11,057 nt of DNA, taken from UHGV virus genome UHGV-0152719. One strand, given 5' to 3'. The position numbers and the translations under genes were made by a program. Shown here one piece after another: positions 1 through 11,057 of the stretch. The notes below the pieces were generated by a model, which searched no databases, was not told the DNA's origin, and was given only the letters and a program-made list of their open reading frames with translations. This DNA is from a virus. Every line of letters begins with the position of its first letter. Position 1 is the stretch's first letter.

Positions 1-88
1 GCATACATCGCCTTTATGAAAAGACAGGAAAAGATAAAATTTAAAAACAGTACATTACGAATGCTCAGACCTATCGTTTAAAGGAGTC

Positions 89-110
89 GCAATACACACT
101 GCAATACACG
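89..110. repeat. Two tandem copies of GCAATACAC(A/G) motif (left-end partner of the 10865-10918 repeats)
   Basis: gcaatacacac at 89-99 and gcaatacacg at 101-110; same motif and orientation as the three copies at 10865-10918. Confidence 0.5.
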
Positions 111-1019
111 ATTATTTATAAGATGAGCGGCATCCGTCATAAAGCTGGTGGATGCTTTTTCTATGCATATATGCACAGTTTTAGTGGGCGTTAATGTCGA
201 TATAGGGATCCCCATATCGAGATTGGATACCTGGCTTTTTTCCGGTTAACCTTTAATCAGGCTGGTGGGCTTTACCTGTTTTGTATGAGCGGTCATCATG
301 ACCATGCCATAACAAAAACCCCATATTCGTGGGTTTTCTGTGTTGTGGCTATTCTGCCGTTGCCGTGCTGGTGGATATTTCCGGTATGTGGCTCACCATA
401 TCGGCATCAGGCCCACCAGCGTGAAGCGTTTTTCATTTTTCGCGGGTAAGCCCCAAAATCTGGGTGTTACTCTTACTACCCAAACTACGGGTAGTTTCCG
501 TAGTTTCTGGTCGAGTTGCAGATCTGCAACTCACCCACCAGCTAACCCATTTTTGGGCCGTCGGGAATATCAACCAGTTACTGCCAGTGATCTGGATGTT
601 CTGCAGTCTGGCTGGTGGCTGGACGCTGATTTTTTGCGTACCTGTATCGGTTTCGTATCCGGTGGATGTTCTGCGTACTTTTCAGAGGCGGATTTCCGCC
701 CACGCCATTCTGGACCAGTTGAAGGGGCCGAATACATCACCGGATTTAGGGGATGTTCCCGGCCTCCTCAATTTGAGGATTGTGGAAGAATCAATGGGTT
801 AGTCTTACTGTCCCTCATTTCCTGCATTGCAGGTTTTCGAAATAATCAATGGGTTAGGCCATCGTGCAATTTTGCACTTTGCCAGCCAGCGCAATGTTGC
901 GTTATCGGGAATATCAGCACGTTACCGGCTTTCGTCATGTTAAACACTGGCCAGGCATCGCCATTCTTATCAATAAAATCACCAGGCTCAAAATTGAGCT
1001 TTGCTTTAATCTCAGCAAG

Positions 1020-1304
1020 TTACCGCCGTAACCGTTCCGGCTTCTTCCACTGGTAAGTTTTTTTCTCGCTCTCCTGATACATCGCCACACGTCGACGGTA
1101 TGCCAGCAACTCTAATACCCTGGTTCGTATGTCGCGCATATCCACGCCGTTAAGATCGATACCGTCACAGCGCATCACCTCAGCCACCACACGCGCGTAA
1201 TTTTCAGCGGTGACGGTATCAGGCTGCATGGCCTCCTGTGTGCCAGCCTGCTGGCTGATTCCGGTAACGCGGCGGATTAATCCCAGTAGTTCGGCTTCTG
1301 TCAT
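1020..1304 (-). CDS. Hypothetical protein (94 aa), last gene of the packaging operon
   Basis: ORF directly downstream of the Nu1-like gene on the same strand; ATG at 1304; no recognisable family; weak Shine-Dalgarno. Confidence 0.45.
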   Translation of the reverse strand: MTEAELLGLIRRVTGISQQAGTQEAMQPDTVTAENYARVVAEVMRCDGIDLNGVDMRDIRTRVLELLAYRRRVAMYQESEKKTYQWKKPERLRR

Positions 1305-1315
1305 AGTGCGCTACG

Positions 1316-1858
1316 TTACTTGTCTTTATCCGGCTGAAACTTATCAGGCACATTTCCGGTAGTTTCCATCAGATAATCGGACAGTATTCGCGGGATGTTT
1401 TCATCAAGTTTTGTGCATGCGTTACAGGCTCTGACAACTTCCTTTTTAAGTCCATCCAGCATAGCGGGGGTAATCTGTGGGAAGCGCCTTTGCATGGTAA
1501 GCGGCAAACTGTCCATGATTGAAGAAATCTGACTCGCCAGTTTTGAAAGCACATATATACAAAATTCCGTACTAATAACGTCGCCGCGTTCGCGCTCGTT
1601 TTTAAGCTCCTGCGCCTCCGCCTGCGCTGTCAGCAATCTGATCCTGACTCGCAAAAGTTCATCATTATCAATCTCGCCTTTGTCGTCTGTAATCTGGTTA
1701 ATTGCATTGCTAACCCGATTGTCTATTACGCTGGCAACATCATAAAACGCCTCGCGGCCTTTACGTTCAACGGGAGTCACTCCCCACTTGTCGAACGCTG
1801 TCGCACTTACACGGCAGCTTTGCGCCATGTTTTTTTTGTTCATCAGGTACGATTTCAT
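1316..1858 (-). CDS. terS: Terminase small subunit, lambda Nu1-like
   Basis: C-terminal two thirds (LTAQAEAQELKNERERGDVISTEFCIYVLSKLASQISSIMDSLPLTMQRRFP...IPRILSDYL) closely parallels lambda gpNu1 (LTRAQADAQELKNARDSAEVVETAFCTFVLSRIAGEIASILDGLPLSVQRRFP...IPGLLSEYI); N-terminus (MNKK...FDKWGV...EAFYDVASVI) resembles the Nu1 winged-HTH more loosely. Start uncertain: GTG 1870, ATG 1858 (GGGGA SD-like upstream, chosen), ATG 1843 (aligns with Nu1 MEVNKK). Confidence 0.8.
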   Translation of the reverse strand: MKSYLMNKKNMAQSCRVSATAFDKWGVTPVERKGREAFYDVASVIDNRVSNAINQITDDKGEIDNDELLRVRIRLLTAQAEAQELKNERERGDVISTEFCIYVLSKLASQISSIMDSLPLTMQRRFPQITPAMLDGLKKEVVRACNACTKLDENIPRILSDYLMETTGNVPDKFQPDKDK

Positions 1859-1968
1859 CAATATCCCCACTTAAGTAATGTTTCAGGTTGGTGTGTTGGT
1901 GTTATCTTTCCCTTTTTATTCATAGAGATAGAGCGAAAAACAAAACCACCACCAGCACCCGAAAAAGG

Positions 1969-2059: not shown

Positions 2060-2443
2060 TCAACCAATCAACTTATAGCGACCATCCCGTGCATTGCGAC
2101 GTACACGCTCAATCTTGAGGCATAGCGCCGCATCTGGCTTTTTTGGGACAGGTACGCGGCAATATTCAGAAGATCGAGGAATATTGTTTATCCAGTCGAT
2201 CACTTCACTTAAATACCAGGCCTTACGCCCTTCCGTAACCTGTACGCGTTCGGGGAACTCTCCGCGAGCCTCAAGGTTTAGCAATGTGCGACGGCTAAGG
2301 GTAGTAAGTTCCATCACCTGATTCATATCAACAAGGCGTTCACTTAAACGCATTTTGTCAGCAATAGCCTTTAATTCCTCTACTGCTGGATCCGGATACA
2401 TCATTTCGGCAATTGGCTTAAGGTCATTGTAATGATTCTGCAT
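2060..2443 (-). CDS. AlpA-family (excisionase-like) helix-turn-helix DNA-binding protein, 127 aa
   Basis: Motif LTTLSRRTLLNLEARGEFPERVQVTEGRKAWYLSEVIDWI matches the AlpA/phage-excisionase HTH pattern (G-FP ... W..SEV..WI); ATG at 2443 preceded by AAGGGGGA Shine-Dalgarno. Confidence 0.6.
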   Translation of the reverse strand: MQNHYNDLKPIAEMMYPDPAVEELKAIADKMRLSERLVDMNQVMELTTLSRRTLLNLEARGEFPERVQVTEGRKAWYLSEVIDWINNIPRSSEYCRVPVPKKPDAALCLKIERVRRNARDGRYKLIG

Positions 2444-2454
2444 TGTATCCCCCT

Positions 2455-2796
2455 TTACACACGAGCCAGCGGCTGAACAGAAATACCTGAGCCAACAAAC
2501 GCGGCAACCTTTGCCGACAGTTCTTTTACAGACTCAGGCCAGTTCAGAGCATCAACATTTAAAACGCCTGTCTTATAAACCTGTGCCTGTGTTTTTTTCG
2601 CTGTGTCGATTTGTACAGCGGAAACATAAACCGCTTTACCTACGCTCGAACCATCCCATACCACCAGTGCACCTGTTGCATCTTCCTGCATCAGTGGCGT
2701 AAATGCAGGAATTACCCCTTTATTAGCTGAAAATATCCCCAGCGTAGTCACCAGTGCTTCAGTGCCAGCCATGAGTTCAGTGTAATGAGTAGCCAT
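2455..2796 (-). CDS. Head decoration protein, lambda gpD-like
   Basis: 113 aa; TPLMQEDATGALVVWDGSSVGKAV and NWPESVKELSAKVAAFVGSGISV parallel lambda gpD [24 protein letters not shown] and [33 protein letters not shown] Shine-Dalgarno before ATG at 2796. Confidence 0.8.
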   Translation of the reverse strand: MATHYTELMAGTEALVTTLGIFSANKGVIPAFTPLMQEDATGALVVWDGSSVGKAVYVSAVQIDTAKKTQAQVYKTGVLNVDALNWPESVKELSAKVAAFVGSGISVQPLARV

Positions 2797-2805
2797 TGCT
2801 CCCCC

Positions 2806-3852
2806 TTAGCCAATGCGAACGGTAACAAAACGATTGATGCGGGCCGGTATTGGCTGTGGTGCTGAATGTGTCTGCACATATTCAATAGCCGGATCACCAG
2901 GCACAATATAGTTTTTCGGTGCAAGTTCGGCTTTAGTCAGCCCCATTCGGATTAGCTCCGGATCCTGAATACCGCCATAGGCGACAATCCCCTGAAGAGC
3001 CGTATTGCCAAGCACCATCAAATCAGGATCAAGGAAATGTTTTTCAGTTCCGTCCTCGTCGGTATAACGCCCGCTGTATACAACAATCGCAACATCGCCC
3101 ATATACCCTTTAAAACTCACCGAATCACCAAGGTCTTTAAGAGCCGTTTCCAGTTCGGAATTAGAACCACGACGGGTATCCAGAGCCTCTTTTATCGCTC
3201 TGAATGAACGGTATTTCTTCCATACATTACCGCCCATAATGATGATATTAGTGACGCCCTCACTAAATTCTGCGTAGCTCTCAATATCATCATTTGGATC
3301 AAAAGTTTCTTTATCCTTACCTGACCACTCAGCACCGCCAGACTGAGTGATGATATTTTGTGGTTTAATATTCCAGTCCAGCTCATAACGTTCAATACCA
3401 TCGCCCTCAATGATATTTTTCCCCGTTGTGATTGCCTGAACGGCAAGCCATTCAATACGTGCACGAATAGCTTTAGCCTGATTTACAATCGCCTGTTTAA
3501 CTTTAATATTACGCGCTCCAAAAGCATTGTATTGCTCAGGTGATACACCAGCAGGGCGCACAGCTAACTTATTTGGATCAATGCTGCTTTTCGGCTTCAT
3601 ATAGCCTGGACGAATTGTTTTTGATTCGTACCCTTCGTCACGTGAAACTTTACTACCCACCATAGGAGAACAAAACGCTGCAATTGGGATATTTGGATCG
3701 TCGATTGTATCAAGAATAATATCGCGCGATTCAAACATTACCGAGCGAGTGAAAAACAAACTGGTAAACAACGCATTTAATTTTTTTTGCACATCTTCAG
3801 CATTAGCCACCTGCACAAGCTGTGTAGGCGAATATAAATCAACCATACTCAT
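2806..3852 (-). CDS. Major capsid protein, lambda gpE family
   Basis: Strong similarity to lambda gpE: NIITQSGGAEWSGKDKETFDPNDDIESYA ... RSFRAIKEALDTRRGSNSELETALKDLGDSVSFKGYMGDVAIVVYSGRY vs lambda NITQSGGTEWSKRDKSTYDPTDDIEAYA ... RSFKAVKEKLDTRRGSNSELETAVKDLGKAVSYKGMYGDVAIVVYSGQY. The ORF extends to 3933, but the MSMVDLY start (3852) matches the gpE N-terminus MSMYTT; the alternative ATG at 3846 has better SD spacing. Confidence 0.85.
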   Translation of the reverse strand: MSMVDLYSPTQLVQVANAEDVQKKLNALFTSLFFTRSVMFESRDIILDTIDDPNIPIAAFCSPMVGSKVSRDEGYESKTIRPGYMKPKSSIDPNKLAVRPAGVSPEQYNAFGARNIKVKQAIVNQAKAIRARIEWLAVQAITTGKNIIEGDGIERYELDWNIKPQNIITQSGGAEWSGKDKETFDPNDDIESYAEFSEGVTNIIIMGGNVWKKYRSFRAIKEALDTRRGSNSELETALKDLGDSVSFKGYMGDVAIVVYSGRYTDEDGTEKHFLDPDLMVLGNTALQGIVAYGGIQDPELIRMGLTKAELAPKNYIVPGDPAIEYVQTHSAPQPIPARINRFVTVRIG

Positions 3853-4017
3853 CCTCTTTACATTCATTACAAATAATTGTGAATATATTCTATTACCGAT
3901 GTCTGCTATGCGAATACATGCAACCAAGTGCAATGTTGTATAAAATATGCCGTAACAACTTCAGTGCTGATAATTCGTGTTAATGTATTTACTTCCTTTG
4001 GTTGGGATTTATGTAGC

Positions 4018-4057
4018 ATGCCGGAAAATCTATTTTTTTCCGGCATCTTTTTGTTTG
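4018..4057 (+). terminator. Hairpin plus T-tract (intrinsic-terminator-like) in the ssb-capsid intergenic region
   Basis: atgccggaaaa / ttttccggcat inverted repeat (4018-4046) followed by ctttttgtttg; the U-tract is on the plus strand, so it would stop antisense or convergent transcription. Function uncertain. Confidence 0.4.
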
Positions 4058-4063
4058 CAGAAT

Positions 4064-4486
4064 TTAAAACGGTATATTATCGCCGTACGGATCATCATTC
4101 CCCGACTGTTGTTTTGCCCTGTTCAGTGCGTCAGTGGCCTGCCCCTGCTGGCCTTTTTTGCCGCCCGGTCGCGCCGTTCGCGCACTGATTACGCTGTCTG
4201 CGATAACCTGCCAGCCCCGCCGCGTTTCGCCGTTCTGGCCTGTCCACTGGCTTACCTGCATGTTACCCGCCACGCTCACCAGTTCGCCTTTGTGGTGTTT
4301 TGCCAGTGCGTCGGCCTGTCTGCCAAACGCCAGGACGGATAACCACATCGTCGCCGTTCCGTCATCTGCCTGGCTGCACGGCAGGGGAACCGCCATACTC
4401 GCCATCGCCATTTGTGTCCCTTTGCTGGTGGTCTTTAACTGCGGGTCAGCCACCAGCCGCCCGTAAGCCGCTATCTGTGCTGTCAT
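4064..4486 (-). CDS. ssb: Single-stranded DNA-binding protein (SSB-like OB fold with acidic C-terminal IPF tip)
   Basis: WLSVLAFGRQADALAKHHKGELVSVAGNMQVSQWTGQNGETRRGWQVIADSV parallels E. coli SSB [52 protein letters not shown]; Gly/Gln-rich linker; C-terminus DDPYGDNIPF resembles the SSB DDDIPF tail. Start ATG overlaps the upstream gene's stop (ATGA). Confidence 0.7.
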   Translation of the reverse strand: MTAQIAAYGRLVADPQLKTTSKGTQMAMASMAVPLPCSQADDGTATMWLSVLAFGRQADALAKHHKGELVSVAGNMQVSQWTGQNGETRRGWQVIADSVISARTARPGGKKGQQGQATDALNRAKQQSGNDDPYGDNIPF

Positions 4487-4740
4487 GCTGTCTGCTCTCC
4501 GGTTTTAACATTGATGGTTGTCACCTGTTCCGCTTCGGCAATCTCCCGTTCTGTCAGCGTGGCAAAGTTTGCAGCCGCCGTTGTCATGAATGCGCTTATC
4601 AGTTCTGGATGTGCTTTCGCGTATCCTTCCCCGGCGTTGCGATCTATTGCCTTAATCGCCACCCTTAGCCAGTGTTCAGCCATATCAAGGGCACGGTAAT
4701 GTGGCTTTATATGTTTGTTCAGTTTTCCTGATGTGTGCAT
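4483..4740 (-). CDS. Hypothetical protein (85 aa)
   Basis: ORF with GAGGGGG SD-like sequence upstream of ATG at 4740; stop overlaps ssb start (translational coupling); no family recognised. Confidence 0.5.
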   Translation of the reverse strand: MHTSGKLNKHIKPHYRALDMAEHWLRVAIKAIDRNAGEGYAKAHPELISAFMTTAAANFATLTEREIAEAEQVTTINVKTGEQTA

Positions 4741-4786
4741 TTTTATTTTTACCCCCTCGTTTAAAAAGTTTTGAAATGTGGTGCAC

Positions 4787-5014
4787 CTCCTCTACCTCTC
4801 TACCTAATCATCTTTCAGGTCAGTAATGGCGCGGCTTTCAGATGGGTAGAGGGCTTTCGGGGCCCTCTACCCATCCTCTACCCGCCCCTCACAAATGACC
4901 TTAATCATGGTGGAGGAGGTAGAGGGCTTTTATTTGCCTTCTACCTGGCCCTCTACCTGCTTATCATATTGAATAATATATATTTATTTTCTTTAGGTAG
5001 AGGAGGTAGAGGGC
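4787..5014. repeat. Iteron array with AT-rich core: putative origin of replication
   Basis: Ten copies of an 8-bp motif in both orientations: CCTCTACC at 4789, 4864, 4875, 4950; variants TCTCTACC 4797 and TTCTACC 4939; GGTAGAGG at 4845, 4918, 4996, 5006; three carry the longer form GGTAGAGGGCTTT. AT-rich stretch 4958-4995. Sits immediately 3' of the primase-helicase gene. Confidence 0.65.
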
Positions 5015-5026
5015 TTTTGTCTAAAA

Positions 5027-6781
5027 TTATAAAAACGCGTCGCAATCCTCTGTTGTTGTCACATTGGTTTGCGTAAGTCCTTTAACCCTGCGCGTTATAT
5101 ATTCACATCCGTAAACTTTCGCCGCTGGCTTCATGGCCTTGCTGAAATCAGCCACGTTTAGCGGCTTGCTTCTGCCTGCGTATGCCATAAACGCCAGATA
5201 GACGCGGTAAAGGCTGTTTCTGGTCGTGTACTTCACGGAATCGCCACCGCCACCCATCATCAGGCCGCGCGCTTCCTCCAGAAAATTCAGAAACTGGCAA
5301 AACTCAATAACCGGATCCGTCTGTTGCTTTATCGCCAGTGCTTCTTCACCGTCGCGCTGTTCAATCAACAAATGTCGCGCCTTTTCTGGATCAGCAAAGT
5401 TTGCCAGCAATCTGCGGATAATCACGGGGATTTCAGCCGCGACCTTCTCCGGTAAATCCTTGTCCTTTTCTGCCTCGCTAACGATATTGTCGAAGCGGAA
5501 AATTACGCGACGACGTGACACACCTCCGGCCCGTTCGGTGAATATCATCGGGTTATTGTTGGTAGCCAGCACCACCGCCCTGATTACCGCCGTAAAACGC
5601 TTTTCATATTTCGGGTTTATTTCCACGGGGTCGCCGCCCGTGATTTTCTTGATGCCCGTGCCTTCGCCTGTATATTTCGGCTGGTCAGCCAGGACGATAA
5701 GACGACTCCCGACAACCTGAGCACGCCCACCAGCATCATCAAGCGAAGTCATTTCAGCGCTTACCGTGTTCTGTTTCCCTGCCAGAAGGCTGGCTATGTG
5801 CGTGAATGTACTCTTTCCGCTCCCGCCGTCTCCGGTGGCCTCAATAAACATCTGCCAGTCGTACCGGTTCGCCATAATCATGTACAGCGCGGCACATATA
5901 CGCATCATCTTGCGTGGGTCTTTTCCGGCTGCGTGATCAAGCCATTTATGAAAGTTTGGCGCGTTGTCGCGGATGTTCTCCCCTGGTGCTGGTGGCGTGT
6001 ACTCAATGCCGTTGTGCGTGGTGATCCAGTTCTCCGGCGAGTGCGGGGAAAATTCCCCCGTTTTCAGATTAAGCACACCATTAGTGAACGGTAGCAAATC
6101 GCCAGACGGCTCGCCCATTGGTTCGGCAATAACTTTTAACGCTTCCACGGCGTTATTGATTGCGCGCTTGCTGAAAGTGGCCCTGTGCTCTGAATAGATC
6201 GCCACCATTTCGCGGCTAAGTTCCATTGTGCTGACCGGACACCATACCCCGCCGCGCCATACGTGAACGATTTCACTTTCAGGATGTACGCAAACGCCAT
6301 CAAAGCGATCGGCAAGCAACTGCGCGCGCTCACTGTCCGCCATCTGCGAAAGTTGCGCCTTTTGCTTTACCGGAAGCTCAATGACCAGACCATCAGAAAG
6401 ATTCTGGCGTTCACGGGCCAGATATTCGCGCCAGTTCTGCACCTCCTGGCCGTGCATACCCTCAGGATAAAAATTTGCATCCTGTACGCCTGCTGCCGCC
6501 AGCTTCTGACCAATCGCCTTTATCATTACAGGCGCAAGATATCCGGCCCTGTATATGCGTGCTGATTTTCGGCCTTCCGGCACAATTTGCAGATTATCCA
6601 GTTCGGATAGCTGCTGCTCCCCAAGCCACACAGGAGGCTCATTATCTCCGGCCATACGCGCATCATGTTCCTGCCATTGTTTCGCGTGTGCCCAGGCATC
6701 ACTACCCGCAAAAATAATGACTTCTGTTCCTTTGTGTTTTATGCCGCGTGACTGCTGTTTTACGTTCGGTGCCAGTTTCAT
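5027..6781 (-). CDS. Primase-helicase, phage/plasmid P4-alpha-like (Walker A GDGGSGKS)
   Basis: 584-aa ORF; Walker A motif TGDGGSGKST followed by helicase-like region; N-terminal primase-like portion; typical P4/PICI pri-rep size and position next to iterons; start ATG overlaps upstream gene stop. Confidence 0.85.
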   Translation of the reverse strand: MKLAPNVKQQSRGIKHKGTEVIIFAGSDAWAHAKQWQEHDARMAGDNEPPVWLGEQQLSELDNLQIVPEGRKSARIYRAGYLAPVMIKAIGQKLAAAGVQDANFYPEGMHGQEVQNWREYLARERQNLSDGLVIELPVKQKAQLSQMADSERAQLLADRFDGVCVHPESEIVHVWRGGVWCPVSTMELSREMVAIYSEHRATFSKRAINNAVEALKVIAEPMGEPSGDLLPFTNGVLNLKTGEFSPHSPENWITTHNGIEYTPPAPGENIRDNAPNFHKWLDHAAGKDPRKMMRICAALYMIMANRYDWQMFIEATGDGGSGKSTFTHIASLLAGKQNTVSAEMTSLDDAGGRAQVVGSRLIVLADQPKYTGEGTGIKKITGGDPVEINPKYEKRFTAVIRAVVLATNNNPMIFTERAGGVSRRRVIFRFDNIVSEAEKDKDLPEKVAAEIPVIIRRLLANFADPEKARHLLIEQRDGEEALAIKQQTDPVIEFCQFLNFLEEARGLMMGGGGDSVKYTTRNSLYRVYLAFMAYAGRSKPLNVADFSKAMKPAAKVYGCEYITRRVKGLTQTNVTTTEDCDAFL

Positions 6782-7077
6782 TTTTTACCTCTGAATCCGT
6801 TAATCATGGTTTTCATTTTCTGGATATTTCCCCACGCTTTTTCCCTGCTGATGGGCTTACTGCGGGGTGCGGCATATACCAGGGAAAAATCACGCCGGAA
6901 CTGATAAACAGGCATCACGCAGTCATAGCTATACCCCTCACGGCGGTAAGTGATGCGCCGTTCTGCCACGCCTTTAATCGTTACCGTGCCGCCGTATTTA
7001 TCGCGGTAAATATCGCCGTTCATAAATTCAGGACGAGCGGGGCCGCTGGCATTAACACCAGTATTTTTCATTCCCAT
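6778..7077 (-). CDS. Hypothetical protein (99 aa), translationally coupled to primase
   Basis: ORF whose stop overlaps the primase ATG (ATGA); no recognised family. Confidence 0.5.
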   Translation of the reverse strand: MGMKNTGVNASGPARPEFMNGDIYRDKYGGTVTIKGVAERRITYRREGYSYDCVMPVYQFRRDFSLVYAAPRSKPISREKAWGNIQKMKTMINGFRGKK

Positions 7078-7081
7078 ATAA

Positions 7082-7324
7082 TTAAATTCCGTTTGTGTGG
7101 TGTTTTAATTCGTGAATTTTTTCTAACGCTCTGTTTATCTTGCTGGTCGAAATATCCAGTAATTCAGAAATGGCAAAGTTCAGTCTTGCCGTTGACTCGT
7201 CACGCTCGCAATTTGTCAGCGATTCAAACCAGACGTTAATAATCTCACTTACGGCATTGTTGTAAGATATTGCGCTTTGTGTGAGTTCATTCAGTTCATG
7301 AATCACGCGCTCATTATTGTTCAT
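7082..7324 (-). CDS. Hypothetical protein (80 aa)
   Basis: ORF with GAGGGAGAG Shine-Dalgarno upstream of ATG at 7324; part of a tightly packed minus-strand operon. Confidence 0.5.
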   Translation of the reverse strand: MNNNERVIHELNELTQSAISYNNAVSEIINVWFESLTNCERDESTARLNFAISELLDISTSKINRALEKIHELKHHTNGI

Positions 7325-7505
7325 TGTATTGCTCTCCCTCCGCTATTAACCATGCCGACACATTGCCGGAAAGACGCGCCAGAAGACTGGAAATCGCGGA
7401 TATATCGGCATCCGTAAGTTTGTCAGGGTATACCTCAAGAAGGCGGCAAATGATTTCAACCTGCTGCGCTCTTTCCGCAATTTCGTTTAATGTAAACTCC
7501 TGCAT
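7314..7505 (-). CDS. Hypothetical protein (63 aa)
   Basis: ORF with AAGGGG SD about 9 nt upstream of ATG at 7505; overlaps the next gene by 11 nt. Confidence 0.45.
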   Translation of the reverse strand: MQEFTLNEIAERAQQVEIICRLLEVYPDKLTDADISAISSLLARLSGNVSAWLIAEGEQYNEQ

Positions 7506-7508
7506 TAA

Positions 7509-7691
7509 TTACACCCCTTTTAATTCATGTACTGCTGCAATAATTACATGTGATAAACCTGCTTTACCGGAATTACTGATTAGTGAATCAATCGCCGCTT
7601 GCATATTAACGGCCTTCACGTTCTGCGTTATTCCGATGGTGTAGCCGCGTTTATTAACTGCACGGGCAAATACGCGGAAGGTTTTAAGCAT
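7509..7691 (-). CDS. Hypothetical protein (60 aa)
   Basis: ATG at 7691 overlaps the stop of the upstream 65-aa gene (ATGCTTAA); operon context. Confidence 0.45.
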   Translation of the reverse strand: MLKTFRVFARAVNKRGYTIGITQNVKAVNMQAAIDSLISNSGKAGLSHVIIAAVHELKGV

Positions 7692-7881
7692 GACTCACTC
7701 CCTGGCGGATTTTTGCAGCGAATACAGCAACACAACCGGACGGGCAACGGCTACGCGCTTCGCGTTCCGTCCAGGCGGTTACGTGGATGATTTGAGATTC
7801 TCCGGCACTCAGTGCCAGAAAACGCCACACAAAGGCCGTTTGTGTGTGTACAAGGTGTGGTATATGATTTACAGCAACCAT
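7684..7881 (-). CDS. Hypothetical protein (65 aa), first gene of the minus-strand replication operon
   Basis: Corresponds to the C-terminal 65 codons of the 356-aa track ORF; internal ATG at 7881 is preceded by a canonical AGGAG SD (ctAGGAGccgttATG); the remaining upstream part of the long ORF is low-complexity and antisense to better-supported plus-strand genes. Confidence 0.5.
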   Translation of the reverse strand: MVAVNHIPHLVHTQTAFVWRFLALSAGESQIIHVTAWTEREARSRCPSGCVAVFAAKIRQGVSHA

Positions 7882-8071
7882 AACGGCTCCTAGTTTACGT
7901 TGTTGGTTAGACGCCCCGTATGTGTTCCCAGCACTGCGGGGCGTTGCTCTTTGTATTTCAACAATCCTTTCGGTGTGTTTCATGTTATGAGCACATGAAA
8001 CACACGTCAAGGCTTTTTGTATTTCTTTTTTTGTGTATACTGAAACACACCGATGATTAGGAGTTTCAGAA
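7882..8071. promoter_or_regulatory. Divergent promoter/operator region between the minus-strand replication operon and the plus-strand regulator genes
   Basis: Perfect 12-bp inverted repeat gtgtgtttcatg-(9 bp)-catgaaacacac at 7973-8005 plus a third half-site tgaaacacac at 8041-8050; minus-strand sigma70-like promoter TTGACG (8005-8010) -17 bp- TAACAT (7982-7987) overlapping the palindrome; plus-strand -10-like TATACT at 8036-8041; 8-bp stem hairpin acgccccg...cggggcgt (7911-7944) in the minus-strand leader. Confidence 0.5.
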
Positions 8072-8377
8072 ATGGCAACGGCTAACAAAAACGCAAAATC
8101 ACAACTGACAACTGTCAGAGTCCCACTAGATGTTATGCAAGGGATGGAATCCGTTAAGCTGGACGGTGAAAGCAATGCCGGATTTATCGTAACCGCCATG
8201 CGCGGAGAAATAGCCCGCCGCCAAGCAGAAGGCAGCGGAGAAAATCCCCTTGTGTCGTCACTGGATGCCCTGGCTAAGGTCGAACAAATCGGCATCAAAG
8301 CAGCCGAGGAGATCGGGCAACTCGTCACCGTCGCGCGTGAAGAACTCCAGCGACGCAAGGTCAAAGAGCATGAATAG
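8072..8377 (+). CDS. Putative ribbon-helix-helix-like DNA-binding protein (101 aa), candidate island regulator
   Basis: AGGAG SD 8 nt upstream of ATG; N-terminal TTVRVPLDVMQGMESVKLDGESNAGFIVTAMRGEIARRQ fits a beta-strand/helix/helix Arc/CopG-like pattern (inference only); divergent from the replication operon. Confidence 0.5.
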   Translation: MATANKNAKSQLTTVRVPLDVMQGMESVKLDGESNAGFIVTAMRGEIARRQAEGSGENPLVSSLDALAKVEQIGIKAAEEIGQLVTVAREELQRRKVKEHE

Positions 8378-8434
8378 CCAATATCAGCGCCATAGTTTGA
8401 GGAACGCAGGCGCATTGCTTTACAGGACAGCACC

Positions 8435-8614
8435 ATGAGCGACACAGAATCAACCAAAACACCATCACCAACTCGTAAGAGACGACGCAAAAATATAGCG
8501 CATGAACATGAATCAGAAAGATTCGCACCTTGTTCGTTTGCTCTTGAGAAATTCCTTAAAGAGCACAGGAAAAAGCTCTCGTTGCAAACCTTGGAACGAA
8601 CCAAATCTGACTGA
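8435..8614 (+). CDS. Hypothetical small basic protein (59 aa)
   Basis: Not in the supplied ORF track (below its apparent length cut-off); ATG at 8435 with AGGA-like SD upstream, in line with the preceding gene and followed by an intrinsic terminator; contains a KRRRK basic stretch. Confidence 0.4.
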   Translation: MSDTESTKTPSPTRKRRRKNIAHEHESERFAPCSFALEKFLKEHRKKLSLQTLERTKSD

Positions 8615-8710: not shown

Positions 8711-9289
8711 TCACTGAATGCGGTTACCAAAGTAAAACTCAGGCTGATATTCACGTATCAGCCTTTTTTCTTCTTCCTCCAGCTCACGCTTTTTGCGCTT
8801 ACATGCCTGTAGCTCCCTCCCCTTCTCGCTGGCACTTATTTGATATTGCTCTTTACGGCGGGAAAAATCCTGTAATGCACCCCACGGGATACCATAAGCC
8901 CCCGTTTTTCTGATACCTGGTATCACATTTCTGAATACCCAGTTACTGAAACGATGAGCAAATGTGCCCGGCGTCGTTGCTTTGCGGCTGCGGGCTATTA
9001 GTTTGTAGAAACCTGACTCAGAGATAATTCTCATATTCTGATTTCCTCCTGGGGTGTAAGTTAAATTTACTCCCTTTTCATCATCATCAAGCATCTGCAA
9101 CGCCGTACGCGAATTGGTTAGTTCCAGCGCAGCACAAACATCTTTTGCAACAAACCACGGATCGCCGTTCAGATACACCACACGAACGTTCACACTATCA
9201 AAGCGCAGAACGACGAGATCACGAATATCGCAGAATTTTTTCACTGGACGAGCGTACCCCTTGCCCGTCACGGCAATATTTTTATTCAT
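8711..9289 (-). CDS. Bro-N domain protein (phage antirepressor-like), 192 aa
   Basis: N-terminal region VVLRFDSVNVRVVYLNGDPWFVAKDVCAALEL...LQMLDDDEKGV matches the Bro-N/antirepressor N-terminal domain pattern; C-terminal charged coiled-coil-like tail. Confidence 0.75.
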   Translation of the reverse strand: MNKNIAVTGKGYARPVKKFCDIRDLVVLRFDSVNVRVVYLNGDPWFVAKDVCAALELTNSRTALQMLDDDEKGVNLTYTPGGNQNMRIISESGFYKLIARSRKATTPGTFAHRFSNWVFRNVIPGIRKTGAYGIPWGALQDFSRRKEQYQISASEKGRELQACKRKKRELEEEEKRLIREYQPEFYFGNRIQ

Positions 9290-9345: not shown

Positions 9346-9603
9346 TTATTGCTGTTTTGTTTTTCCAGGTTTCCATCCAGGATGCCACTCACCACGGATC
9401 CATGCCTGAACCTCTGAAAGTCGATACCCTGCAGCACGTTCACCGATCTTGATACGTCGCGGGAATTTACCTGCCTGCTCCATTTTCCAGCGTGTTGAGT
9501 TTGCCAGCGTGGTAAGTGCTATGCACTCTTTTTCACGAATGAACCGATCAATGTCCTTCATTGTGCGCAAATCGTTTTCATCAACAAGAGAATAAATTGC
9601 CAT
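9346..9603 (-). CDS. alpA: AlpA-family transcriptional regulator / excisionase-like protein
   Basis: 85 aa with HTH IALTTLANSTRWKMEQAGKFPRRIKIGERAAGYRLSEVQAWI typical of AlpA (prophage CP4-57 regulatory protein family); AAGAGG SD; immediately downstream of the integrase. Confidence 0.8.
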   Translation of the reverse strand: MAIYSLVDENDLRTMKDIDRFIREKECIALTTLANSTRWKMEQAGKFPRRIKIGERAAGYRLSEVQAWIRGEWHPGWKPGKTKQQ

Positions 9604-9604
9604 A

Positions 9605-10846
9605 TCACACCACCTCTTTATTAAGCTCGATAACGTTGTTGTTAAATCCTGCTATCGTATTAAGGTAATTAACCCACATATTAAGCACCTCAAGTTTTTT
9701 CTTTATATGCCTGCTTTTATTGTAAACACCAGCAACCCCTTTCACTTTATGACCTAAAAGAAGTTCGACAATATAAGGATCCGCCCCCATATCATTAAGC
9801 GTAGTGGAAAATGTGCGCCTGAAATCATGTATGCACCACAAGCCATTAGTATCATGACCAAGACGCCTGCATATTCTGTTTGCAGCCCCTGTTATTGTCG
9901 CCCTTTGCAAAGCACAACCGACAACATAACCGCAATTTTTTGTTTCTGCGTAAAGATTAACGATCCATTGTTTTATTCCGTCAGGAACAGGCCTTACTAT
10001 AGCCTCCTTGTTTTTGCTGTGCTCTTTTGGGACTGTCCATACCCAGTTTTTTAAATCCCATTCGTCCCAGGTGGATAGCCTCGCCTCCTGCTGTCGGCAA
10101 CCAAACACCAGGCAGATAACCATTATTCTTCGGTTATATATTGATGACAGAGTTAGCAAATTATTACCGTAAGCATAAGACCATACATCAGCGGTTTCAT
10201 TGATATTAAGAACGCGATCCCTTATACCGGATGAGCGCCCGACATAACTTACGTTAATATCTCCAAAGGGATCGCACGCGATGTATTGCCTGACGCGACA
10301 AAAACGCAACGCCTGTTTGATATCAAGAAAAATTGCACCAGACATAACAGGCGCATTTTTTTTGATCCTGTCAAAGACGGTAAGCCATGTGTGTAATTTG
10401 CACTGTTCTATAGCCATATCACCGATATAGGGGAAGATATGCTTTTCAAATCGTTTTATTAAATATTCATGCTCTTTTCTGGCTGTTGTGGCGTGATTGT
10501 CGTACCAGTAAAACAGCGCATCCCTTACGGTCACTGGTTGCATAGTTTTTTCGGCAGCAAGTTTTATTTGCCTGCGGGGGTCCAGATTTTCAGCCAGCCA
10601 TTCACGGCACTGATCACGCATGCGCCTGGCCGTTGCAAGAGACATGTCAGGATAGCGACCAAGTGTAAGCCATACCGGAGGGGATTCCCTGCCACCAAGA
10701 CGATAGTAAAAAACAAAGCTGATCCCCCCAACCATGCTTACACGCACAGACAACCCGCGCCCATCCGCTATTGTTTTTTGTTTGTCCTGCCGTTTTCCGA
10801 CAAGACTCTTTAACAGTTTGTCACTGAGTTTGTTTTCAATAGCCAT
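9605..10846 (-). CDS. int: Tyrosine site-specific integrase, P4-type
   Basis: 413 aa; N-terminal P4-integrase-like arm-binding region (MAIENKLSDKLLKSL...GRGLSVRV); catalytic-domain motifs including HDFRRTFST and the GVAGVYNKS tyrosine region; GAGGG SD upstream. Confidence 0.9.
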   Translation of the reverse strand: MAIENKLSDKLLKSLVGKRQDKQKTIADGRGLSVRVSMVGGISFVFYYRLGGRESPPVWLTLGRYPDMSLATARRMRDQCREWLAENLDPRRQIKLAAEKTMQPVTVRDALFYWYDNHATTARKEHEYLIKRFEKHIFPYIGDMAIEQCKLHTWLTVFDRIKKNAPVMSGAIFLDIKQALRFCRVRQYIACDPFGDINVSYVGRSSGIRDRVLNINETADVWSYAYGNNLLTLSSIYNRRIMVICLVFGCRQQEARLSTWDEWDLKNWVWTVPKEHSKNKEAIVRPVPDGIKQWIVNLYAETKNCGYVVGCALQRATITGAANRICRRLGHDTNGLWCIHDFRRTFSTTLNDMGADPYIVELLLGHKVKGVAGVYNKSRHIKKKLEVLNMWVNYLNTIAGFNNNVIELNKEVV

Positions 10847-10864: not shown

Positions 10865-10918
10865 TTGCAATACACACCCACCCCGATCGCCAATTTGCAA
10901 TACACATTGCAATACACA
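10865..10918. repeat. Three direct copies of TTGCAATACACA motif upstream of int (partner of 89-110 repeats)
   Basis: ttgcaatacacac 10865-10877, ttgcaatacaca 10895-10906, ttgcaatacacaaa 10907-10920; same motif and orientation as the two copies at 89-110; candidate att-arm / recombination-directionality or int-promoter operator sites. Confidence 0.5.
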
Positions 10919-11057
10919 AAACCGCGAAAAACTGGAAAGGTGATGAACGGTCATCAAAAGCATGGAAAACGACATTCCAGACGCAGCAAGGGTTTCAGTG
11001 GAGTTGGCGAACGATGCGGGCAACTACGGTGAGATGATAGACATAAATCGCCTTCAC

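Follow-up and report, generated by a model that had tools for sequence, protein, structure and literature searches.

The gene on the minus strand of an 11,057-bp window (the whole stretch of DNA analysed) at 4064..4486 encodes a genuine OB-fold protein of the SSB (single-stranded DNA-binding protein) family, confirmed far beyond chance by comparisons of sequence, profile and structure. We consider, with a probability of roughly 70%, that its product works as an accessory SSB and that it closes the replication module (pri, origin, orf85 and ssb; Table 1) of a Gram-negative PICI. Family membership, fold, three retained aromatic residues out of the four that stack on ssDNA, a conserved C-terminal tip, purifying selection and a constant position after the primase gene all support the accessory role. 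For the protein itself we infer ssDNA binding, oligomeric state, host partners and a supplementing role.

Table 1 Coordinates of the features of the island in the analysed window
Feature	Position	Strand	Description
Integrase (tyrosine)	9605-10846	-	
AlpA	9346-9603	-	
Bro-N protein	8711-9289	-	
Small ORFs	about 7082-7900		Icd-like gene annotated in relatives
DUF4222 protein	6778-7077		
pri	5027..6781	-	584-aa primase family protein, P4-family primase C-terminal domain
Replication origin	4785..5017	.	GGTAGAGG-type iterons, both orientations
orf85	4483..4740	-	85 aa, small helical protein, PHROG 1231 (function not known)
ssb	4064..4486	-	OB fold 1-103, basic linker 104-130, acidic tip DDPYGDNIPF 131-140
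Hairpin	4018..4046	.	11-bp stem, 17 nt past the ssb stop, between replication and late (capsid) modules
Major capsid gene, lambda-E type	2806..3933	-	PF03864, E=5e-41
Head decoration gene, lambda-D type	2455..2796	-	PF02924, E=4e-15
Second AlpA-like gene	2060-2443		Between decoration and Nu1-like genes
Nu1-like small terminase homologue	1316..1870	-	PF07471, E=1e-23; relatives named 'terminase small subunit'
94-aa ORF	1020-1304		

The element is a Gram-negative PICI, a familiar kind of Escherichia coli phage satellite; this bears out an earlier interpretation, made from the sequence alone, that the gene is satellite-encoded. Measured against the published definition (Fillol-Salom et al. 2018; taken from PMC6092414 and PMC10111431), the integrase, alpA and pri genes all lie on the minus strand of an 11,057-bp island (expected size, 10-20 kb), and the origin lies directly 3' of pri, with two iteron sets around an AT-rich region (iterons of the type GGTAGAGG at 4785-4960 and 4993-5017, flanking a stretch at about 4962-4995). 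This gene order and origin type match the published architecture of Gram-negative PICIs (PMC6092414, PMC10111431). Both ends of the window (3-14 and 11043-11054) share the sequence CATA[C/A]ATCGCCTT, probably the att core, which suggests that the window spans the entire island. The PICI is probably of the helper-embedded type (HE-PICI). A doubled motif, GCAATACACAyTGCAATACAC, lies ~90-150 nt inside each end (at 89-109 and 10897-10917) and may be the integrase arm-site motif reported to be unique to HE-PICIs (PMC10111431). Positions 10866-10877 were noted together with these. The closest relatives are 95.5% identical across 93% of the window (99.5% for the integrase), and in Escherichia coli GPEC1031 and CFSAN018748 a near-identical island, co-oriented with a lambdoid prophage, splits the prophage portal gene (parts at 2235-3017 and 13829-14662 of locus L001, and at 4371-5144 and 15990-16871 of locus L015). 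Such a portal-splitting insertion into a lambdoid prophage is the HE-PICI configuration (PMC10111431), and would leave the helper without portal protein until the satellite excises.

The main genes of the island are all on the minus strand. Its replication initiator is pri, the product of which carries D5_N (PF08706) and DUF5906 (PF19263) domains and scores 111.6 bits against TIGR01613 (cut-off 108.7). On the late side, RefSeq relatives of the capsid protein begin at the ATG equivalent to position 3846, and the match of the Nu1-like protein to the Nu1 profile is confined to the profile's C-terminal half; this protein has no similarity to the 435-nt ORF at the equivalent position of EcCICFT073. 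Portal, protease, large terminase and tail genes were not found among the ORFs scanned, and a set of capsid, decoration and Nu1-like genes lacking these functions fits dependence on a lambdoid helper. A recombinase or annealase gene was likewise not found in the island. The first part of the window (1-1020) may hold the cos site of the island or be a variable accessory region. This stretch of ~1 kb has no convincing gene, its positions 1-785 are absent from many otherwise close relatives, and imperfect internal repeats occur at 538-581/882-925 and 765-802/820-857. Rfam and tRNA scans of the window found nothing, and a search of the window for lambda cosN gave one match with one mismatch, inside pri and no better than chance.

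As had been read from the sequence, ssb lies between the origin, upstream, and the capsid gene, downstream, with orf85 between the origin and ssb. The 140-aa ORF has an ATG start, a TAA stop (4066-4064) and the protein end QQSGNDDPYGDNIPF, and a ribosome-binding site (GGAGAG) lies 8 nt 5' of the ATG. This ATG (4486-4484) overlaps the TGA of orf85 (4485-4483) in a shared ATGA (4486-4483), and the two genes are therefore probably translationally coupled; the overlap is present in all E. coli islands examined, and the annotations of CFT073, Nissle 1917 and CFSAN018748 give the two genes the same 4 nt in common. We pursued orf85 as a hint to function and dropped it: profile searches assigned it to no Pfam or NCBIfam family, its PHROG has no known function, and its AlphaFold2 model, a helical hairpin with a pLDDT of 66, was too weak for a fold search. 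Homologues of orf85 (n=167) come, wherever the organism is named, only from Escherichia, Shigella or Citrobacter. The hairpin past the ssb stop is a putative terminator of the ssb transcript; its terminator-like score is on the plus strand, and on the minus strand no T run follows the stem.

Membership of the SSB family is supported by several profile collections. The Pfam SSB profile search that the sequence-only reading had suggested gave 58.9 bits against PF00436 (cut-off 26; E=5.5e-16), and the product also scored 59.8 bits against NCBIfam TIGR00621 (cut-off 53.95) and matched PHROG 44 (single strand DNA binding protein) with E=1.1e-39; against the SSB subfamily model NF006533 it reached 25 bits, far under the cut-off of 260. 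Sequence matches in the PDB were all SSBs (including those of Thermus, Thermotoga, Staphylococcus, Bacillus and E. coli), except for one marginal match (E=0.008). A monomeric AlphaFold2 model built on 37 family members has a beta-barrel (strands 2-11, 16-19, 25-36, 44-54, 69-82 and 88-101) and one helix (55-62) within residues 1-103, with block pLDDT values of 79-92, followed by a disordered stretch at 104-140 (pLDDT <50). Among the 50 Foldseek matches listed for this model against the PDB, all are bacterial SSB OB domains, with target-normalised TM scores of up to 0.81 and E values down to 1e-9; the OB-fold assignment proposed at the outset thus holds at the level of profile, model and structural match.

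BLASTP aligned the product to E. coli SSB at 26% identity across the OB domain, and three of the four aromatic residues that stack on ssDNA are kept in this alignment: W48, F54 and W81 take the places of W54, F60 and W88 of E. coli SSB (mature numbering) and are invariant in the 37 family members. The equivalent of W40 is Q39, within a shorter loop, and the tetramer-interface residue H55 is replaced by L49. Because of these two substitutions, the binding mode and oligomeric state may differ from those of E. coli SSB. The two proteins have in common the Pfam/TIGRFAM family, the OB fold and a disordered IPF tail, and they differ in the linker (~55 Gly/Gln/Pro-rich residues in the 178-aa chromosomal protein, which ends in DDDIPF, versus ~30 basic residues here) and in the number of acidic residues at the tip (four in the last nine versus three in the last ten).

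The acidic IPF tail that had been noticed in the sequence is present as DDPYGDNIPF. Set against the host MDFDDDIPF from the C terminus backwards, it shares an aromatic residue at -7, Asp at -5 and the terminal I-P-F, and it is changed relative to the chromosomal DDDIPF at -6 (Gly) and -4 (Asn). The description of this tip as a variant was correct as to these two differences but overstated their weight, as they fall within the normal variation of the family. Among 120 close homologues, the commonest last-six strings were GDNIPF (54), GDGIPF (19), GDDIPF (14), EDEIPF (8) and SDDIPF (5), and 105 full-length close homologues end in one or other of these five. The family alignment shows no change at D136 or F140 and at least 90% conservation of I138 and P139, with N137 the majority residue in only about half of the sequences. 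The tail consensus of the wider clade, from representatives of clusters at 50% identity, is P-F-[D/N]-D-x-[I/L]-P-F, with E, D, P, A, S, G or N at -4. Since position -4 is free both in the family and in the wider clade, its Asn is ordinary allelic variation and no special adaptation. Hydrophobic contacts and hydrogen bonds, rather than charge, are reported to govern how DnaG binds the SSB tip (PMC3632105), which suggests that an Asp-to-Asn change at -4 costs little.

The gene has the same place in EcCICFT073, the experimentally studied model of Gram-negative PICIs. The SSB of EcCICFT073 (WP_000126698.1; CFT073 1384538-1384948; 136 aa) is 69% identical to the window SSB and shares its OB-fold residues and the ...DDPYGD-x-IPF tip, and the two islands share the order of pri, origin, small ORF (with the 4-nt overlap) and ssb, upstream of the capsid and decoration genes. 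They differ in that the EcCICFT073 protein has a shorter linker without the ATDALNRAK segment and ends in GDDIPF rather than GDNIPF, and that a perC gene follows its ssb. A paper of 2023 assigns Primase, SSB and DUF5906 genes of PICIs to a 'Replication' category, alongside mapped origins (PMC10111431). When the rep gene and ori of EcCICFT073 were cloned, the resulting plasmid replicated in DH5alpha (PMC6092414); as pri and ori alone replicate there, the basic replicon does without the SSB, which is probably not essential, and an essential replication role for ssb is unlikely. Literature searches on SSBs of PICIs and other satellites, and the PICI papers checked for the term, yielded no functional study of a PICI SSB.

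Outside E. coli, ssb genes of this kind were found in loci of E. albertii, Klebsiella (L003, L005 and L011), Leclercia (L004, L006, L007 and L009) and Pectobacterium (L008 and L010), at about 8001-8450 in each of the other-genus loci. The gene again follows an island primase gene, which encodes D5_N/DUF5906 domains in E. coli islands including EcCICFT073, a DUF927 primase in E. albertii, and Zn-ribbon, Toprim and DUF927 domains in Klebsiella, Leclercia and Pectobacterium. Most loci of E. albertii and these three genera have an integrase-like gene a few kilobases upstream. The primase with Zn ribbon, Toprim and DUF927 is P4-alpha-like. A gene of the ProQ/FinO family directly follows ssb in some of the other-genus islands. 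Tips vary by genus (...PLYDDDF in Klebsiella; ...YDDQIPF and ...YDDLPPF in Leclercia; ...FSDDAPF in Pectobacterium), one Pectobacterium copy (L010) ending before the tail, and what stays constant is the terminal Phe with the acidic residues before it. The tip ...YADHESF also occurs among the satellite SSBs of the Klebsiella, Leclercia and Pectobacterium loci.

The basic segment of ~30 residues that follows the barrel (ARTARPGGKKGQQGQATDALNRAKQQSGN) includes a part, residues 104-127 (RPGGKKGQQGQATDALNRAKQQ; codons 4106-4177), that is recognisable across four genera, from Escherichia to Pectobacterium. Nei-Gojobori dN/dS values of 0.13-0.21 for ssb, in comparisons with the copies of E. coli Nissle 1917, E. 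albertii, Leclercia and Pectobacterium, indicate that the gene is kept by purifying selection. For the OB fold the same comparisons gave 0.15-0.23, whereas for segment 104-127, with only 24 codons, four comparisons gave 0.05-0.12 and that with the Pectobacterium copy 0.19; to the extent that 24 codons allow an estimate, a ratio this low is unusual for an SSB linker. EcCICFT073-type alleles have a shorter, unrelated linker in place of this segment, which is therefore dispensable in natural alleles.

The gene is widespread. Its DNA is 100% identical to the RefSeq gene for WP_000126640.1, annotated as single-stranded DNA-binding protein, in E. coli CFSAN018748, and homologues detectable by megablast occur in 1523 of the 5426 complete E. 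coli genomes (~28%). A protein search returned 760 relatives, those with a named source being called SSB and coming from Escherichia, Shigella, Salmonella and Citrobacter; some database entries of these relatives are partial. A close homologue was not found in 50,697 phage records, where the best matches had ~30% identity and were mostly to phages of Gram-positive bacteria, and the clade thus appears specific to satellites and similar islands. We rejected a phage origin of ssb on the same result. Matches in plasmid records were few: the nearest relatives had ~50-70% identity and lay in records of 10 to 380 kb, and a 98% match sits in a 4.9-Mb record that resembles a chromosome. These few matches do not support a conjugative-plasmid SSB, and no link to a plasmid leading region was seen. 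The GC content of the island peaks in ssb, at 59.6% (66.7% at third codon positions, GC3) compared with 47.4% in the window overall, which suggests an evolutionary origin unlike that of its neighbours. Recent capture of a host ssb was rejected on the 26% identity to E. coli SSB and on the same GC values.

How such a protein might act can be outlined from its parts. After induction, the primase family protein would start replication of the island at the iteron origin, and the OB fold of the SSB would coat the single strands exposed at the origin and at forks. The disordered tail, with its D-x-I-P-F end, could then dock into the pockets that receive the host SSB tip (on Pol III chi, DnaG, PriA and others), coupling the satellite replisome to the host polymerase, and the protein would provide extra SSB capacity while helper and satellite replicate together. 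Docking to host proteins is challenged by the other-genus tips (DDDF, PPF and APF), which differ although the hosts are all enterobacteria; this divergence is explained as well by drift or a non-host partner as by host docking.

Some mobile elements carry accessory SSBs whose acidic tail has Phe as its last residue, among them those of the F-type ssb genes of conjugative plasmids and gp2.5 of phage T7, which belongs to another sequence family than the window SSB and whose tail offers a precedent for recruitment of a dedicated partner; the ...YDDDF end of the Klebsiella relatives resembles the gp2.5 type. By analogy, the tail, the basic segment 104-127 or both could bind a protein of the island (Pri or the orf85 product) rather than host proteins, a possibility that we hold to be rather improbable, though better placed than the other alternatives. 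The nearest precedent is the SSB of HK620, likewise an enterobacterial mobile-element SSB, whose non-canonical tip (NDYPPF) is functionally required and loads the cognate Sak4 (PMC5928155). The ATGA overlap of orf85 and ssb in all E. coli islands examined, the conservation of segment 104-127 in four genera with dN/dS values below those of the OB fold (0.05-0.12 versus 0.15-0.23, the former from only 24 codons), and the divergence of tips by genus with retention of the terminal Phe and the acidic residues all hint at such a partner. However, orf85 was not detected by tblastn beside ssb in the other-genus loci, and tip type does not follow primase type, as Klebsiella islands with DDDF and Leclercia islands with QIPF share the Zn-ribbon, Toprim and DUF927 primase. 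Moreover, EcCICFT073-type alleles replace the segment with a shorter unrelated linker, and the HK620 tip acts on an annealase encoded by a neighbouring phage gene, whereas no such gene, and no recombinase, was found in the window island. It is thus doubtful that an enterobacterial clade of satellite SSBs, not seen in deposited phage genomes, recruits satellite Pri or orf85 in place of host partners; in that case the ssb product would be dedicated to organising the satellite replisome rather than being a spare host SSB.

The satellite SSB might instead act against the helper, the second idea of the sequence-only reading, by competing for host replication and repair proteins or by displacing host SSB from helper DNA, so that replication of the lambdoid helper would slow. 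To our knowledge, lambda has no SSB of its own. Competition is physically possible because the tip keeps the docking residues, and the gene belongs to a satellite-type clade with no close homologue in the 50,697 phage records; even so, we judge this reading improbable and found no support for interference mediated by the tail. Rpp, which acts on TerS and packaging, was found to account for interference by EcCICFT073, and phage replication was unaffected when RppA was expressed (PMC6739421); no SSB effect is reported. The variable -4 position also speaks against a competitor tuned for the task. Satellite and helper in the helper-embedded form begin replication as a single molecule (PMC10111431), so that poisoning the helper would harm the satellite too.

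Some defence systems respond to phage SSBs, and the protein could conceivably act on host anti-phage systems that detect phage SSBs or ssDNA, whether as decoy, trigger or inhibitor. This is highly improbable: PADLOC matched neither the SSB nor any of nine other island proteins submitted to it, and the position of the gene is tied to the replication module and not to the accessory-gene end. Least probable of all, a decaying passenger gene with no present function would account for the Pectobacterium copy (L010) that ends before the tail and for the partial database entries, but the dN/dS of 0.13-0.21, the intact ORF with its ribosome-binding site and the detection of megablast homologues in 1523 complete E. 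coli genomes out of 5426 speak against decay.

The accessory SSB reading therefore describes a feature in which nothing is new, as ssb is already annotated and SSBs are already named in the PICI literature: it belongs to the usual equipment of Gram-negative PICI replication modules, that of EcCICFT073 included, and matters little beyond its correct annotation.
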